Shown here piece by piece: positions 1,787 through 59,495 of a stretch of DNA of 64,000 nt. Below the pieces are notes generated by a model, which saw only the letters and a list, made by a program, of their open reading frames with translations, did no database searches and was not told where the DNA came from. The position numbers and the translations under genes are program-made. The DNA comes from an uncultured Verrucomicrobiae bacterium (GTDB lineage: Bacteria; Verrucomicrobiota; Verrucomicrobiia; Chthoniobacterales; UBA10450), in the NCBI GenBank assembly GCA_963772365.1, contig CAVYXA010000003.1, positions 128,001 through 192,000 of the forward strand, given 5' to 3'. How positions within the stretch are numbered: position 1 is the stretch's first letter; every line of letters starts with the position of its first letter.

Positions 1787-2295
1787 CTGTAGGGGAAGCT
1801 GACAGCTTCCCCCGTGCCTATGGCCGAGCCCCCGCGATTGCCAGCGATCCAGCTTCCTTGGGATAAATCCGTCATCTACTTCGTCACGATGTGCGTGAAG
1901 GGTCGACAGCCTGTATTGGCGACATCGGAAATGTTCGAAGCGACGAACGGGACAATCGGACAGCTGCGAAAATGGCGCGTGCTAGCCGGCGTTGTCATGC
2001 CCGATCATGCCCATTGGATCGTCTCGCCTCGTGAAGATCGGGACTTATCGGTCGGAGATTTTTCGCATGGATTTAAGCGAGTGCTCAGTAGTCGGATCGG
2101 TTCACAAACATGGGAGTGGCAGCGAGGCTGTTTCGATCGGTTGTTGCGATCGGATGAGAATCTGTTGAGCAAGTGGATTTATGTGAAAGATAATCCAGTG
2201 CGGCATGGGTTAGTCGAGAAGGCGGATGACTGGCTGTATTACATCGACAACATTAACAATGCAGCCACAGGGGAAGCTGTCAGCTTCCCCTACAG
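1787..2295. mobile_element. RAYT element bounded by a perfect 26-bp inverted REP pair
   Basis: 1787-1812 ctgtaggggaagctgacagcttcccc is the exact reverse complement of 2270-2295; each copy is GTAG plus a hairpin (ggggaagct-gac-agcttcccc). Confidence 0.85.
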
Positions 2296-4504: not shown

Positions 4505-6085
4505 TTATTCCCACTCAATCGTGCTCGGCGGTTTGCTGGAGATATCGTAAACAACGCGATTGACGCCTTTCACTTCGTTGCAGATACGATTGGAGATGCG
4601 GGCCAGAAGCTCGTAGGGAATCCGGACCCAATCTGCGGTCATGCCGTCCTGACTCTCGACGATGCGCAATGCGATTGTGTTTTCATACGTGCGCTGGTCG
4701 CCCATGACACCGACTGATTGAACTGGAAGCAGAACGGCGAATGATTGCCAGACTTTGTAATACCAATCGGCGGCTTCCATTTCGCTTTGCACGATGGTGT
4801 CGGCTTCGCGCAGGATCGACAATCGCTCGGGCGTGACTTCGCCGAGGATGCGCACGGCCAGTCCGGGACCCGGGAACGGTTGGCGATAGACGATTTCTTT
4901 TGGCAAACCAAGTTGTAGCCCGACCTGGCGAACTTCGTCTTTAAACAATTGCCGGACCGGCTCGACCAGCTCGAAGTGCATTTTCTCCGGCAAGCCGCCG
5001 ACATTGTGATGACTCTTGATCACCTGTGAAGGGTTTCCTTCGATCGAAACGCTTTCGATTACGTCGGGATAAAGTGTGCCTTGGGCAAGAAAACGGAATT
5101 CGTGATTTCTGGATCGTGATTCGTCTTTCCTGAGATCGCAAACAGCGTCTTCGAATACTCGAATGAATTCGTTACCAATTATTTTTCGCTTTTGCTCAGG
5201 ATCGACAACGCCGCGCAGCTTCGACAGAAATCGTTCCGAAGCATCGACATATTTGAGTTTAATGTGAAAATTTTCTCCGAATACTCGCTGAACGACTTCC
5301 TCTTCCCGAGCCCTGAGCAGGCCGTTATTGACGAAAATACAGGTGAGCTGATCGCCGATTGCCTTGTGCAATAGCGCTGCCGTCACTGATGAATCGACCC
5401 CACCGCTCAGCCCCAGTACCACTTTTTCGTCACCGACTTGCCGCTGAATACGCTCGCACGCTTCTTCGATGAACGAGCCCATCGTCCAGTCCATCGGGCA
5501 GCGGCAAATGTGATAAACGAAGTTTTGCAGAATTTCCTTGCCTCGGGGTGTGTGCGCGACTTCTGGATGAAATTGGAGGCCGTAGAATTTGCGCTCGGAA
5601 TTTTCGATCGCCGCAAAGTTCGAATTTTCCGAAGTGGCAACGGCATGAAATCCTTTCGGCAGCGCGGTCAGTTTGTCTCCGTGACTGCTCCAGATGTCGA
5701 TCTGTTCACTAATGCCTTCGAACAACGGCGACTTGTGTCGAATGTGTAAAATGCCCGGCCCGTACTCGCGTCGGGCGCTGAACTCGACTTCGCCGCCCAA
5801 ATGACGCGCCATCAATTGCATTCCATAACAAATGCCGAGCACCGGGACCCCCATCTCGAACATTGCCGGATCGCCCAGTGGCGCGCCTTTATCGTAAACA
5901 CTGGCCGGGCCACCGGAAAGTATCAGGCCATTCGGCTTGAGCTTTGCCATCTCAGCGGCAGAAGTGGCGAAAGGTACGATCTCGGAATAGACCTGACACT
6001 CCCGAATTCGGCGGGCGATGACTTGAGTGTATTGCGAACCAAAATCCAGGATGAGAATTCTGGAGTGAGGAGCTCGAGCCTTCAC
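4505..6085 (-). CDS. guaA: GMP synthase (glutamine-hydrolysing)
   Basis: [48 protein letters not shown]. Confidence 0.97.
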
Positions 6086-20484: not shown

Positions 20485-21715
20485 TTATCGGTGATATGCG
20501 CTGAGCAGCTCGTGCACACGATCGTGAGGCAAAGCATCGACATGATGATTGTCGCGCCCGGTCATGGAATGATTGTCGACCAACGCGTTCACCACAGCCT
20601 CTTCTGTCGCTTCCACCACCCCGGCAAAAATCGGGTCGAGCAGATCATTCGGAATTGTCTCAACGGAATGCGTGATCTGATCACTGTTCGCGACATTCCG
20701 ATTGGCGGTTGAAAACGCGATGAATAAATCACCGGACCCATTTCCCGAAACTGTTCCCGTCCGGGCGAGCCCAAGCGAAACGCGCCGGGCCAATCGCTTC
20801 AATTGACCGGCAATAAGGGAGCATCAGTGGCCACAACTGCGATGCACGAGCCGTTCTCCTGTTTATAGACTTGGCCGGGAATTTCTTTCCCTACAGGAAC
20901 ACCCGCAATCGTAAGCTGGGCGCGACGGCCGAAATTTGCCTGAAGAAAAACACCCACGGTGTAGGTCCTTGGCGGCGCATCTTTGCAAGTCGGATGTCGA
21001 TCTTGCGAGACGAAGTGCCGTTTCCGCCTTTGAACTCATAACAGATCATTCCCGTGCCGCCGCCCACGCTGCCTTCTTCGACGTTCCGCCATGGGCAGAA
21101 TCGAGCGCATGAAAAACATCTTCCGGTTTCACATGGAACCCATTGATGTCGTTAAGCCATCCATCCCACGTCTCCGCCACCACCGGCAAACTCCACCAAT
21201 ATCCAGTTTTGTCGGCTGCTCCGTGGTTGACGCGCCATGTGATTACTGCGTCCCGAGCAACACCGACGCTGTGCGTATTTGTGATCACAACCGGACCTTC
21301 GAAAAATCCGCTCTCTTCAACCCACGCGTCCCGGTCATTTCTCCATTGCCGTTTAAACTGAAATAGCCCGCATAAACTGGATCATTGAGTGATGTCGGGC
21401 CCGCGTGGAAGGATTGCTGTTACCCCGGTGCGAACCGGGCCTTTACCGACTTCAAGTTTCCCTTCCCCGCTGATCAGGGTGGTGTAGCCGACTTCCACGC
21501 CAGCGACATCGGTGATCGCGTTTAGTTTTCCTGGCGTTCCATCGAATGGAACTCCCAAGTCGCGAGCGCGAACAATAGCCTGCCCTTCGTAGCCTTGGCG
21601 AAGATGGGTCGATCTTACCGGAGGCGATTTCTGCGGCTCGCGCGCAATCGCATCGAGCATAAGCAGGACCATGCAGTAATAGCGAGGAGAAACCCGAAGA
21701 GCGACGCGATTTCAT
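20485..21715 (-). CDS. dmpA: DmpA/P1-family aminopeptidase (several frameshifts)
   Basis: RARDLG...NAITDVAGVEVG...VRTGVTAILP, TNTHSVG, LPVVAETWDGWLNDINGFHV, GNGSGDLFIAFSTAN, ATEEAVVNAL. Confidence 0.8.
21578..21607 (-). repeat. 30-nt micro-element B, copy in dmpA
   Basis: Minus strand gatcgac|ccatcttcgccaaggctacgaagggcaggc|tat, similar to the copies at 30094 and 58677. Confidence 0.65.
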
Positions 21716-21773: not shown

Positions 21774-23353
21774 GTGAGCTACGAGGTTTTTGCCCGCAAA
21801 TATCGGCCACAGACTTTCGATGATCTGGTTGGGCAGGCACATGTTTCGCAGACGCTGAAAAATGCCGTCACCCAGAACCGGCTGGCGCATGCGTATCTTT
21901 TTGTTGGACCACGCGGGATCGGGAAAACATCGACAGCGCGCATTCTCGCTAAGGCACTGAATTGCGTGAACGGTCCAACGGCGACGCCATGCGGCGTGTG
22001 CGATAATTGTCGCGAAATCGCCGCCGGAAACTGCCTCGACGTCATCGAGATTGATGGCGCCAGCAATAACAGCGTCGAGGATGTGCGCGAGCTTCGCGAC
22101 AATGTCCGTTACGCGCCGGCGAAAGGTCGTTACAAGATTTATCTTGATCGACGAGGTCCACATGCTTTCGCAGGCGGCGTTTAACGCCCTGCTCAAAACG
22201 CTCGAGGAACCGCCGCCGCACGTGAAATTTATTTTCGCTACGACCGAGCCGCAGAAGGTTTTGCCGACAATTCTCAGCCGTTGTCAGCGGTTCGATCTTC
22301 ATCGCATCCCGGCGAATCTAATTGCGAACCATCTGCAATTCATTGCCGGTAAAGAAAAAGTTTCGCTCGAGCCCGCGGCTGCACACGCCATTGCCCGGGG
22401 CGCCGAAGGCGGTCTGCGCGATGCGGAATCGATGCTCGATCAATTGGTCGCGTTTTGCGGAGAAAAAATCAGAGAGACCGACGTGCTTAGCATTTTCGGA
22501 TTTACTGCCGAACAAACGGTTGTCGATCTTACCGGAAGGATCCTGCGTGCGAAGGCAGCAGACGCGCTCGATTTACTTTACGAACAGATGCGAGTCCGGG
22601 AAGGACATGATGCGGCTGATGTCGGATTTGATTGTTTATCTGCGCGATCTCTTGGTGTACAAGGCAAAACCGGAAGCGCTGAAGGAAGATGTCGATCCTG
22701 AAACGCAAAAGGCTCTGGCGGAACAGGCGGAGTTGATCGCGACCGATCGGTTGCTGGAATTAATCGATCAATTCGCCGCCGCCGAAGGCCGAATGAAATG
22801 GGCGCCGAACAAGAAACTGCATTTCGAAGTTGCGATCATTAAAGCGATCCAAAGCCTGGGACAGGCCACGCTCGATGAAGTAATCGAAAAACTGGGCGAT
22901 CTGCGCGATGGTAGGGCGCGCTTGCCGAGCGCGCCGAAAGCAGAGACGAAGATTGCACGAGTTGCCGAAGCAGACCCCGGATATGGGGCCAAAAAGATCC
23001 CCTCGAATGTCGATCCTGCGGAGCTGTGGAAAGAGGTGAATGAGAAAATTCCGCCGCAAAAGGCATTCTTGCGAAACACTGCCGGTGCGGCTCACGTGCT
23101 CGGAATCGATGGCCGCCATTTGCAGCTTGGCTTCGCGCCCAGCGACAAATCGTTGATGGAAATCATGGGAACGCAGGCGAATCGCGCGGTTATCGAAAAG
23201 CTCGTGCGAGAGGTCACTGGTAAAGAGTTTTCCATCAAGCTCAGCCTTGATGAAAAGCTCACGGAGAAAGCAGTTCCGCGATCGCGGGAACCCAAAGACG
23301 ATCCGCTAATCCAGGAGGCGATCGAGATGTTTGAAGGAAAACTCAGATCCTGA
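21774..23353 (+). CDS. dnaX: DNA polymerase III gamma/tau (two indels)
   Basis: YEVFARKYRPQTF, GPRGIGKT, Zn module C..C..C..C, EIDGASN, DEVHML, ILSRCQ, GGLRDA. Confidence 0.93.
22911..22935 (+). repeat. GTAG-type REP inside the dnaX linker
   Basis: GTAG-GGCGCGCT-TGCCG-AGCGCGCC, perfect 8-bp stem. Confidence 0.55.
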
Positions 23354-29679: not shown

Positions 29680-31188
29680 ATGGCTTACCGCTCCTATCGC
29701 GATTTTCTTCAGGCGCTGGAAACAGCCGGCGAACTGACGCGCGTCTCGGTCCCAGTCGATACCAATTTGCTCATTGCCGAATGGGCCGATCGAGAGATGA
29801 AATCGCCCGGTGGCGGCAAAGCGTTGCTTTTCGAGCAACCGCTTGTCGATGGAAGGAAATCGCAGTTCCCGGGGGCGATTAATACCATGGGTTCGCGCCG
29901 GCGGATGGCGCTGGCCTTACAGGTCGCGGACGTCGAAGAGTGGCGCGGGAAATTCAGCTCATCCTCAAAGCCAAGCCGCCCACTGATCTGCGTGAAGGAT
30001 GGAGCTCTGCTCAAGCAAGGAATTCATTTGCTGCACGCGCGGCCGAAACAAGTGAAGGAAGCGGCCTGTCACGAAGTCGTGCACAAGATCGACCCGCCTT
30101 CGCAAGGCTGCGGCGCGGCAGGCAATGGCGATGGATTTTCATTGTCGGATCTGCCGATCTTGAAATGCTGGCCCAAAGATGGCGGGCGATTCATCACCCT
30201 CCCCTGCGTGCATACTCGCGATCCGGAGACCGGCGCGCGCAACGTCGGGGTTTATCGAATGCAGGTTTATGACGAGCGCACTACCGGCATGCACTGGCAG
30301 ATTCACAAGGTCGGCGCGCGGCATGGGAAACGTTATTATGAAAGGCGCGAACGGATGCCGGTGGCGGTGACCCTCGGGGGCGATCCAGTTTACACCTTTG
30401 CCGCCACCGCGCCGTTGCCAGACGGTCTGGACGAAATTTTGTTCGCCGGTTTTCTGCGGAAGAAATCGGTCGAGCTAGTCCGTTGCAAGACCATCGATGT
30501 CGATGTTCCGGCGGATGTCGATTTTGTCCTGGAAGGTTATGTGCAGCCTGGCGAGATGCGACCGGAGGGACCATTCGGCGATCATACTGGGTTTTATACC
30601 GCGGTCGAGGATTACCCAGTCTTTCATCTGACCGCGATCACGCATCGCAAGGATGCGATTTACCCGACCACGATCGTGGGCAAGCCGCCGATGGAAGACT
30701 TTTATCTCGGCGATACGACGGTGCGGCTTTTTCTGCCGGTGTTCAAAATGAACTTTCCAGAGATCGTCGATATGACGTTGCCGCCCGAAGGCGTGTTTCA
30801 TAATCTGGTGTTTGTCAGCATTCGAAAACAGTATCCGTATCAGGCGTTCAAAGTGATGCACGGCCTCTGGGGCATGGGCCAGATGATGTTCAGCAAATAC
30901 ATCGTGGTGGTGGATGAAGATTGCGACGTGCATAACACCAGCGAAGTGCTGTTTCGTTTGTGCGCCAACACCGATCCGGCCCGCGATTCAACCGTGATCA
31001 AAAACCCGAGCGACTCGCTCGATCACGCGCCAACGGAACAGAACATCGGTTCGCACATGGGATTTGATGCCACCCGAAAATTACCGGGCGAAGGCTACCG
31101 TCGCCCATGGCCGGAGTTGCTGAAGATGACGGACGAAGCGCAGAAGCTCGTGGATGAGCTGCAACGAAAGTCAGGCATCTCTACCTGA
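29680..31188 (+). CDS. ubiD: UbiD-family decarboxylase (probably menaquinone/futalosine pathway)
   Basis: WPKDGGRFIT, NVGVYRMQ, EGPFGDHTGFY, VVVDED, DSLDHA, FDAT.K; compensating indels near 29940-30003. Confidence 0.88.
   Translation: MAYRSYRDFLQALETAGELTRVSVPVDTNLLIAEWADREMKSPGGGKALLFEQPLVDGRKSQFPGAINTMGSRRRMALALQVADVEEWRGKFSSSSKPSRPLICVKDGALLKQGIHLLHARPKQVKEAACHEVVHKIDPPSQGCGAAGNGDGFSLSDLPILKCWPKDGGRFITLPCVHTRDPETGARNVGVYRMQVYDERTTGMHWQIHKVGARHGKRYYERRERMPVAVTLGGDPVYTFAATAPLPDGLDEILFAGFLRKKSVELVRCKTIDVDVPADVDFVLEGYVQPGEMRPEGPFGDHTGFYTAVEDYPVFHLTAITHRKDAIYPTTIVGKPPMEDFYLGDTTVRLFLPVFKMNFPEIVDMTLPPEGVFHNLVFVSIRKQYPYQAFKVMHGLWGMGQMMFSKYIVVVDEDCDVHNTSEVLFRLCANTDPARDSTVIKNPSDSLDHAPTEQNIGSHMGFDATRKLPGEGYRRPWPELLKMTDEAQKLVDELQRKSGIST
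30094..30123 (+). repeat. 30-nt micro-element B, in frame in ubiD
   Basis: gatcgac|ccgccttcgcaaggctgcggcgcggcaggc|aat encodes PPSQGCGAAG. Confidence 0.8.
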
Positions 31189-58430: not shown

Positions 58431-59495
58431 ATGCCAACAGGCAACGAGGCCTTAATCGAAATTATTCGCCAAACGATTCGTTCACACGGGCCGCAATCGT
58501 TCGACTGGTTCATGCAACAGGCCCTTTATCATCCCGAGCATGGATATTATGCCAGCGGACGCGCCCGTATCGGACGAAAGGGCGACTACTTCACAAACGT
58601 CAGCGTCGGTCCGTTATTCGGCAAATTGTTAGCCGCGCAATTCAAGGAAATCTGGGAACAGCTCGGGAGGATCGACCCGCCTTCCCAAAGCTCCGGCGCG
58701 GCTGGCAATTTCCTGATCGTCGAGCAAGGCGCTCATGATGGCCAGTTCGCCTGCGACGTTCTTGGGGCGATCCAGGAACACACACCCAAATTTTTTGCCG
58801 CGTTGCGTTATCGAATCATCGAGCCGTTTGCGGTGTGGAAGGATCGACAACGGCAAAACCTCGGCCCGTTTCGTGACAAGGTGGAATGGCGCGATGCTCT
58901 CGAGCCTTTTACTGGCATCCATTTCTCGAACGAACTCCTCGACGCCATGCCGGTCCGATTATTTGAAAATGGAATGGAGAAATTTATCGATATTCGGAAC
59001 GGTGAGTTTGTGTTGTTGACTCGCGAATCGAAAAGTCGGCGCCCGTTTAATCAGGCAGCGCTCGATTGGATCGACAATGTAGCGGCGAAGTTGCAGCGCG
59101 GTTACATCCTCACAATCGATTACGGACGCGAGTGTTCCGAGCCGCCCCGCGATGTCCAGGTTCGGGCGCAACATCGACATCTGGATTCGCCATTGGAACA
59201 AATCGGCGAGGCAGATATTACCGCGCCGGTGGATTGGACTGGCATTATCAGTCGGGCCAGCCAGGCGGGTCTGGATTTGGCCGGATTCACGGACCAACAT
59301 CATTTCCTTACCGGGATCCTTTCGACCTGGCCCGATCTCCTCGCCCGAGTGAATCCAAAGATGAGCCGTGAGCTGAAAACGTTGCTTCATCCGGAGATGC
59401 TGGGGCGCAGTTTCCATGTGCTGGCATTATCAAAGAATGTGAATCGTGGCCTGCCATTAGCTGGTTTTCAGTTGGCCGGAACGCTTTCCCGGTAA
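58431..59495 (+). CDS. MidA/NDUFAF7-like SAM-dependent methyltransferase
   Basis: FMQQALYHP..GYY, GDYFT, IVEQGAHDG, SNELLDAMP, IDYG, DITAPVD. Confidence 0.85.
   Translation: MPTGNEALIEIIRQTIRSHGPQSFDWFMQQALYHPEHGYYASGRARIGRKGDYFTNVSVGPLFGKLLAAQFKEIWEQLGRIDPPSQSSGAAGNFLIVEQGAHDGQFACDVLGAIQEHTPKFFAALRYRIIEPFAVWKDRQRQNLGPFRDKVEWRDALEPFTGIHFSNELLDAMPVRLFENGMEKFIDIRNGEFVLLTRESKSRRPFNQAALDWIDNVAAKLQRGYILTIDYGRECSEPPRDVQVRAQHRHLDSPLEQIGEADITAPVDWTGIISRASQAGLDLAGFTDQHHFLTGILSTWPDLLARVNPKMSRELKTLLHPEMLGRSFHVLALSKNVNRGLPLAGFQLAGTLSR
58677..58706 (+). repeat. 30-nt micro-element B, in frame in the methyltransferase
   Basis: gatcgac|ccgccttcccaaagctccggcgcggctggc|aat encodes PPSQSSGAAG. Confidence 0.8.

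Follow-up and report, generated by a model that had tools for sequence, protein, structure and literature searches.

A stretch of 64,000 nucleotides (the window) from the Chthoniobacterales assembly GCA_963772365.1 (contig CAVYXA010000003.1, positions 128,001 to 192,000) contains a ubiD gene in which ten codons are supplied by a 30-nucleotide (nt) repeat, here called element B. Further copies interrupt a gene for a MidA-family methyltransferase and, in more diverged form, a dmpA peptidase gene on the opposite strand (Table 1); the named homologues of the window's genes point to Chthoniobacterales. Element B is precisely mobile, has a defined hairpin structure and a biased choice of target, passes through a reading-frame filter in coding DNA, and is physically linked to a single clade of GIY-YIG nucleases.

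Element B in the window and beyond it

A preliminary description of the window had singled out three 40-mers, in ubiD, midA and dmpA, as sites of one small element that inserts into coding genes. All three are present, and the ubiD and midA versions do agree at 36 of 40 positions. The dmpA version is read in a different frame, and matches those of ubiD and midA at only 27/40 and 26/40 positions, respectively. The element is real, with its start one base earlier than had been placed.

Table 1 Features of the window that relate to element B
Feature	Position	Strand	Details	Basis
Element B copy in ubiD	30093..30122	+	30 nt, in frame; PPSQGCGAAG added between Asp and Asn	Empty alleles, boundary analysis
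Split target motif AAGATCGA^CAA, ubiD	30085..30125 (halves 30085-30092, 30123-30125)	+	0 mismatches to ARGATCGACAW	
Host gene ubiD, UbiD-family (menaquinone) decarboxylase	29680..31188	+		Pfam; NCBIfam menaquinone decarboxylase
Element B copy in MidA-family methyltransferase gene	58676..58705	+	30 nt, in frame; PPSQSSGAAG added	
Split target motif AGGATCGA^CAA, midA	58668..58708 (halves 58668-58675, 58706-58708)	+		Motif matching
Host gene midA, S-adenosylmethionine-dependent MidA-family methyltransferase	58431..59495	+		Pfam Methyltransf_28; homologue names
Diverged element B copy, dmpA N-terminal linker	21579..21608	-	30 nt, other frame; HLRQGYEGQA	
Split target motif in dmpA	21576..21616	-	1 mismatch	Orthologues L370, L372 with uninterrupted motif here
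Host gene dmpA (Peptidase_S58)	20485..21672	-	In pieces in the assembly	Three open reading frames with Pfam PF03576

Comparison with relatives delimits the ubiD insert exactly. The loop is longer than the common 14-residue allele (seen, for example, in the empty homologue P0010) by precisely PPSQGCGAAG, and empty alleles at the DNA level read AAGATCGACAAT in L004 and L015. The loop is itself variable, spanning 12-37 residues in the 118 anchored sequences of 120 homologues, and a 13-residue gap is found at the insert site relative to E. coli UbiD (2idb). B-type peptides occur in 11 of the 118 sequences and are so distributed that a tree from which the loop was left out requires 6 changes, three or more of them forced by strong branches. 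The same loop (window 30060-30140) holds at least three other types of insert in the relatives P0001-P0120, including heptamer-like RPTPNA repeats, GFQPMSHRQDADAT and GMTAS... sequences. As far as this alignment extends, the UbiD loop is an insertion hot spot.

The corresponding MidA segment has 17 residues in 116 of 120 homologues, 23 in three, and 27 in the query alone. At the DNA level four of five orthologues have 36 nt where the query has 66, the fifth containing an unrelated 54 nt, and an intact target motif is present at the place of insertion in two orthologues (L376, L379). The structure model of MidA is poor (mean predicted local distance difference test score, pLDDT, of 47) and would place the insert in coil between a helix and a strand. 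The proposal that an insertion writes ten residues into unrelated enzymes, and the orthologue comparison suggested as its check, are thus borne out at ubiD and midA by exact empty alleles; dmpA is considered with the mechanism below. The dmpA copy sits in a linker N-terminal of the peptidase domain and is of the same subtype as the second amidohydrolase copy (see below). The dmpA gene is split by five 1-nt indels relative to the orthologue from a genome of the same genus (G001). The dnaX gene (window 21774-23353) is also split, and the breaks in both genes are probably long-read assembly errors. An Rfam search of the window returned one tRNA only, with no match to element B.

Scanning the genome under study (G000; 3.35 Mb, 55% GC, 90% complete) with a three-block profile yielded 43 copies at a score of at least 23. 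At a score of at least 20, the matches in three null genomes from a Markov model numbered 1, 0 and 1. The dmpA copy and the second amidohydrolase copy are more diverged, fall under the score cut-off and are outside the 43. Sites in dnaE, an amidohydrolase gene and a 2-oxoacid dehydrogenase gene were compared with orthologues in five relatives. The dnaE gene, encoding the main DNA polymerase, was found to be exactly 30 nt longer than three of five orthologues; of the remaining two, that of G001 has a diverged B copy and that of G007 falls 6 nt short of the empty allele's length. Amidohydrolase site 1 is 30 nt longer than all five anchored loci from four genomes (one locus was not anchored), and site 2 is likewise 30 nt longer in 5/5 comparisons. 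Additional B copies lie in open reading frames with Pfam matches to DnaE2, MnmA, LeuD, GlnRS, HsdM, MoaE and others. A single open HsdM-like frame (G000:C3:544937-545129) contains two copies of 30 and 31 nt in opposite orientations.

Beyond this genome, a strict B pattern matches 15 of 41 related genomes (0 for the reversed control), and gives at least 120 matches in a species collection; the 80 titles listed include Verrucomicrobiota, Acidobacteriota, Planctomycetota, Proteobacteria and others. The pattern also matches 11 viral contigs. In two Acidobacteriota records (L122, L136) B copies form head-to-tail arrays with a 32-33-nt period. The tallies of B-positive relatives, motif counts and nuclease genomes include the unpublished genomes G003, G008 and G014, and no conclusion hangs on these alone. 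In the sequences compared, element B inserts precisely and without target duplication in many phyla.

Anatomy of the element and its target motif

The anatomy of element B was determined from a wider set of 168 distinct copies. The base preceding CCGCC covaries with the purine of G[AG]CA near the far end (C-G in 99 copies, T-A in 59, other combinations in 10). Because of this paired covariation the base belongs to the element, and the insertion point is hence GA^CA, one base to the left of that first proposed. The element consists of a bulged outer stem, a 3x3 GTA/GAA or GAA/GAA internal loop, a 2-bp inner stem with a hypervariable loop, and a 4-nt tail. The inner loop takes 68 forms, and its closing pair also covaries (C-G in 134 copies, T-A in 15). 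Energy folding of the 40-mers was no better than for shuffled sequences (z 0.01 to 1.26), the stem being imperfect, so the hairpin rests on covariation and not on energy. No target duplication accompanies insertion: where a T lies on the 5' side, a non-T follows the element in 43 of 62 cases, and the empty amidohydrolase allele L361 likewise reveals none. The earlier view of B as a precise, enzyme-less insertion element of hairpin type is upheld by these data.

An insert of exactly 30 nt had been regarded as a defining feature. This holds for ubiD, midA, dnaE and both amidohydrolase sites, but the family ranges from 30 to 33 nt. The 168 copies comprise 75 of 30 nt, 67 of 31 nt, 25 of 32 nt and one of 33 nt (i.e. 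93 of 31-33 nt), and the 43 copies in G000 comprise 22, 11, 9 and 1, respectively (21 of 31-33 nt). Among copies with sufficient flanking sequence, a position deep in a long open reading frame is occupied by 10 of the 48 whose length is 30 or 33 nt, compared to 1 of the 63 of 31 or 32 nt (p 9e-4). The 31- and 32-nt copies are nearly absent from long frames, so it is selection that keeps the frame. The description of the element itself as frame-preserving is not supported: across the copies compared, frame preservation is a survival filter and not a property of the element.

The sequence split by B in ubiD and midA belongs to a highly abundant motif. In this genome AAGATCGACA is the commonest 10-mer, with 1048 copies, and ARGATCGACAW occurs in 1267 exact copies (631 and 636 on the two strands). 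The window has 29 of these, e.g. at 4812, 23511 and 58840 on the forward strand and 771, 20994 and 62035 on the reverse strand. Most single-base variants are 10- to 500-fold rarer, those at positions 2 and 3 only 2- to 4-fold. Motif pairs within 40 nt are limited to 8 neighbours, 5 of them inverted, versus ~14 expected at random. Motif density falls to 0-1 per 20 kb in stretches of 66-71% GC, compared to a mean of 7.6; these nearly motif-free stretches (G000:C1:1-60000 and C3:780000-820000) may be foreign DNA or mis-binned sequence. Across genomes, AAGATCGACAA is present in 265-960 copies in 9 of 25 family genomes, in 31-78 copies in four, and in at most 7 copies in 16 genomes of other families. 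Within a phylum sample only G000 and G050 (739 copies) are motif-rich, the other 199 genomes having at most 45 copies.

Insertion of B is strongly biased towards this motif. Eight of the 43 genomic copies lie within 2 mismatches of it, compared to 0.05 expected (p 4e-16), and among copies with a GA^C site 7 of 11 are in the motif, compared to 5% expected. All eight have offset 0 and one orientation; the remaining offsets between -10 and +10 are empty on both strands. In this clade B prefers the A^C step of ARGATCGACAW, and the target preference suggested by the preliminary description is thereby confirmed and reduced to one register. Copies outside the motif often lie within unrelated hairpin or heptamer repeats.

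DNA uptake sequences occupy poorly conserved residues (PMC2817400; here and below, statements about published systems draw on the available portions of the papers cited), and part of the motif enrichment may therefore reflect survival. Survival cannot account for the one fixed register. The motif's profile is that of a DNA uptake sequence, and from it we infer a possible function in uptake. A methylase that tracks the motif was not found, the C5 type occurring in 1/9 and the Dam type in 5/9 of the motif-rich genomes, while N6/N4-type methylases, present in 34/41 genomes, are uninformative. ComEC is present but also occurs in 39/41 relatives, and is thus uninformative on motif-driven uptake. 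No replication-strand bias of the Chi/KOPS kind was detected for the motif in 150-kb bins.

A nuclease cassette at tRNA genes

Absent from the preliminary description were the hyper-abundance of the target motif in the genome and the fact that the B hairpin belongs to a GIY-YIG cassette at tRNA genes. At one of 161 B loci (L155) a small GIY-YIG gene lies beside a tRNA gene. Relatives of the nuclease were collected at 110 loci, comprising the best 30 of 75 family genomes that were positive and the best 80 of 395 matches in metagenomes. A B hairpin lies ~80-90 nt upstream of the nuclease gene in 102/110 loci (59/61 after dereplication), and in 19/110 it is found on both sides of the gene.

The cassette (~400 nt) is made up, in order, of a CCA end, a first hairpin, one arm of which starts in the CCA, then the B hairpin as the second motif, a third that is conserved and B-like (48/61 cassettes), and the 82-codon gene. 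The CCA end is mostly that of tRNA-Ala or tRNA-Val, with Gly, Ile and Met also represented. The two hairpins display compensatory changes in 8 of 17 pairs, a figure that is inflated by related sequences and that none of 500 shuffles reached. Behind the gene, 12 of 44 cassettes have a second copy of the 13-87 nt that end at the CCA or no more than 3 nt from it; one of these is a tandem copy, and shuffled sequences gave no such case. Two cassettes (L203, L207) interrupt a gene that encodes a protein on the opposite strand, and the 85-87 nt duplicated there end CCACCA; L202 has a fragment of the same gene behind a tRNA-like left end. In L155 and L201 a free B copy lies inside the cassette itself, exactly where its two hairpins meet.

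The nuclease has 82 residues, a Pfam GIY-YIG match and conserved catalytic Tyr, Arg and Glu residues; NCBIfam offers no name for it. Its predicted structure has a pLDDT of 94, with Slx1 as the nearest fold to the model. It is ~25% identical to the product of a G000 GIY-YIG gene bearing Ssn-type flanks, and probably belongs to a clade other than cd10448, that of the Ssn proteins. For the 25 family genomes covered by both searches, a nuclease match at E<=1e-14 was obtained in 9/14 with B and 0/11 without (p 0.001, the genomes being kin and not independent). With the queries used, the nuclease was not found in viral contigs or plasmids.

Other small GIY-YIG genes have other hairpins. Among 20 hand-picked weaker matches to more distant GIY-YIG loci only two have a B hairpin, most having different hairpins, and the GIY-YIG genes of G000 itself have other hairpins, none with B nearby. 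A second small GIY-YIG clade (L334, L338, L339, L344-L348, L350, L332) has its own preceding hairpin of the CCGCGTAAAA...CACGCGG type. Each small GIY-YIG clade thus seems, from these comparisons, to have a cognate hairpin. At G000:C1:377020-379069, six near-identical small GIY-YIG genes are arranged in tandem behind a tRNA gene, with 321-bp spacing and each with a tRNA 3'-end fragment; a seventh GIY-YIG gene, of another type, follows behind another tRNA.

Mobilisation, alternatives and known systems

The reading we favour, with moderate confidence, is that element B is a non-autonomous mobile hairpin of 30-33 nt, mobilised in trans by the SLX1-like GIY-YIG nuclease. The nuclease would recognise the B hairpin in single-stranded DNA and cut beside it, as SsnA does with its NTS hairpin (SsnA cuts a few bases 5' of NTS; PMC11893778), and the freed hairpin would be sealed into a nick by host repair enzymes. 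Read on the strand of the cassette, the motif has the step TG^TCG, which is also that at the junction of the two cassette hairpins, and it may be favoured because of this shared step; perhaps it is also favoured because it is often single-stranded or protein-bound. The inserted peptides would be tolerated passengers in surface loops.

Several observations weigh against this reading. The nuclease clade was not found in G000 (best E 6e-10, to other clades; genome 90% complete), which has only nuclease-less cassette ends, at a tRNA-Gly and two tRNA-Ala genes, and only one of the 161 loci of free B copies has the nuclease within the fetched flank. Free copies end CARG and cassette copies CAG-T/C, so the free copies are not simple excisions. 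The Foldseek match between the nuclease and Slx1 is weak (E 1e-3). With respect to the target, 35/43 copies lie outside the motif, where the consensus is weak (A before the element in 98/168, C after it in 109/168); in other genomes in-motif copies amount to 5/17 in motif-rich and 0/13 in motif-poor family members (p 0.052), one of the five being from the unpublished G014. The 2-oxoacid dehydrogenase site is variable and has no clean 30-nt gap; nor does the dmpA site, where the orthologues have 4-6 other residues. GIY-YIG enzymes are hydrolytic, so host repair would be needed to complete insertion, and they are not known to join DNA.

It is possible, although we think it unlikely, that a host enzyme (a DNA-uptake processing enzyme, nickase or repair factor) cuts the motif at A^C, with B a passive patch captured at breaks and the cassette either supplying hairpin fragments or being a bystander. 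The fixed register in the motif fits such a scheme, as do the several B subtypes found at that register (stems with C-G or T-A, bulged or not, 30 or 31 nt long) and the entry of B into unrelated hairpin and heptamer repeats; directed cutting at the octamer HIP1 has been proposed for SDR5, a small dispersed repeat (SDR) of Nostocaceae (PMC4390886). However, conservation of the stem across phyla without the motif and the 59/61 link to one nuclease clade are left unexplained, and no C5 or Dam-type methylase tracks the motif-rich genomes, as noted above.

A single early insertion in the motif could instead have spread to other motif copies by microhomology gene conversion across the 8+3 nt flanks, e.g. 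during natural transformation, with no site-specific enzyme. The 1267 identical motif copies are potential recipients, the 36/40 likeness of the ubiD and midA copies includes their flanks, and the ubiD insertion is patchy on the tree. Yet the motif-borne copies are of different B subtypes, which points to independent events, most B copies are outside the motif, and the flanking homology is very short. We judge this route to be distinctly improbable.

We attach slightly less weight still to the view that B is a GTAG-type repetitive extragenic palindrome (REP) moved by a REP-associated tyrosine transposase (RAYT), i.e. a Y1 HUH transposase. On the reverse strand B does have GTAG beside a small hairpin, the lack of a target duplication is in keeping with HUH chemistry, Y1_Tnp has 9 matches in the genome, and intragenic REPs are known in Opitutus terrae (PMC3733652). 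But GTAG-type REPs have an unpaired GTAG (or GYAG/GTRG) tag at one end of a 6-13-bp stem, and GTAG is internal to B, within the 3x3 loop in the stem, and not a terminal tag; it is GAAG in 70/168 copies, and the tail on that strand is CYTG. Furthermore, none of the nine G000 Y1 genes is flanked by B when the flanks are read, none of 161 B loci has a nearby match to a Y1 profile built from 7 G000 genes, and the supplements of PMC3733652 contain no DNA match to B. One Y1_Tnp match (G000:C1:531070-531348) lies within a 904-codon open frame. At window 1871-2107 (G000:C3:129871-130107) a RAYT-like gene has GTAG-type inverted repeats of its own on either side, which are unrelated to B.

Least credible of all is an RNA route, in which B would be made as a transcript downstream of tRNA 3' ends, freed as a small structured RNA, and enter DNA through RNA recombination or reverse transcription. 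In its favour, G-U pairs occur on the strand of the cassette, whose hairpin lies in the sense direction after tRNA genes and whose first hairpin uses the CCA, and the GUA/GAA internal loop resembles a loop-E submotif. Against it, sheared G-A loops are also stable in single-stranded DNA, Rfam gave no match to B in the window, and the linked enzyme has a DNase fold. Moreover, SsnA is inactive on RNA (PMC11893778).

Element B had been likened to Rickettsia palindromic elements (RPEs). The analogy holds in that a shared peptide appears in frame in unrelated genes, from a far smaller element, but SDR5/HIP1 and Ssn/NTS are closer. Like B, SDR5 is a tiny repeat inserted precisely at a fixed step of the genome's most iterated short motif (PMC4390886, PMC5861425). 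HIP1 is a palindromic octamer tied to methylases, whereas the target of B is a non-palindromic 11-mer with no matching C5/Dam methylase pattern. In the available portions of these sources SDR-like repeats are reported as not found outside Nostocaceae among HIP1 genomes, in contrast to B, which occurs in many phyla and has a candidate enzyme; this distinction from SDR families is drawn from published descriptions.

In the Ssn/NTS-SRM system, as with B, a single-domain GIY-YIG gene is physically linked to a hairpin of ~30 nt that has a short unpaired tail and is also dispersed alone (PMC11893778). The SRM pattern matches 0/43 B copies and 0/64 nuclease loci, with 18 matches in G000. The B-linked nuclease differs from Ssn in its 82 residues and its position behind tRNA CCA ends with target duplication; the word 'tRNA' is absent from the main text of PMC11893778, and the portions of it consulted describe neither a motif target nor precise insertion into genes. 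RPEs and intragenic GTAG/CGTC REPs share with B the in-frame translation of palindromic repeats in housekeeping genes, including that of DNA polymerase III alpha (PMC10969869, PMC3733652). RPE-1 is ~150 bp (PMC10969869), compared to 30-33 nt for B, the short RPEs carry a CGTC tag, and B is further set apart from the REPs and RPEs described there by its imperfect stem with a fixed 3x3 internal loop and its defined target, with no terminal GTAG or CGTC tag and no RAYT neighbour. Miniature inverted-repeat transposable elements have terminal inverted repeats and a target-site duplication; B has neither, one of its ends being an unpaired tail. In our literature search, outside whose coverage most subscription journals lie, neither B nor the tRNA-parked cassette nor the motif was found to be described, and a match to a listed SDR or REP family is possible. 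Among the matches listed, literature containing the motif 10-mer concerned unrelated subjects only.

The motif is comparable to the DNA uptake sequences of Neisseriaceae and Pasteurellaceae, which are non-palindromic, ~10 nt long and present in 700-1300 copies per genome on both strands, in coding DNA (PMC2817400). It shares with the uptake sequences described there a sharply peaked consensus, scarcity in foreign-looking DNA and restriction to a clade; it differs in sequence and in having no excess of terminator-like inverted pairs (5 close inverted pairs among 1267 copies). On a bolder version of the favoured reading, which we regard as possible but doubtful, ARGATCGACAW would be an undescribed DNA uptake sequence of soil Chthoniobacterales and B a 30-nt parasite homing into it. 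The 82-residue SLX1-like nuclease of the tRNA-parked cassettes would cut both hairpin and motif in single-stranded DNA, incoming or lagging-strand, resulting in a cut-and-patch mobility without transposase that repeatedly writes 10-residue loops into essential proteins.

Among repeats shorter than 40 nt, REPs have RAYTs to move them, while in the available portions of the literature compared SDRs, RPEs and CGTC repeats are without a demonstrated mobiliser. For element B, alleles with and without the insert are exactly delimited, the target step is defined and there is a candidate enzyme of 82 residues, so that the question of how it moves can be reduced to a simple oligonucleotide assay. If the proposed role of the nuclease is true, the Ssn idea of sequence-specific single-stranded DNA nucleases would be extended to a second GIY-YIG clade with a new specificity. 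The motif resembles an uptake sequence in an abundant soil lineage, while the literature found treats Neisseriaceae and Pasteurellaceae. Both sequences leave their mark on proteins, with the motif shaping proteomes through Lys-Ile-Asp-Asn in loops, and element B placing 10-residue inserts even into DnaE.

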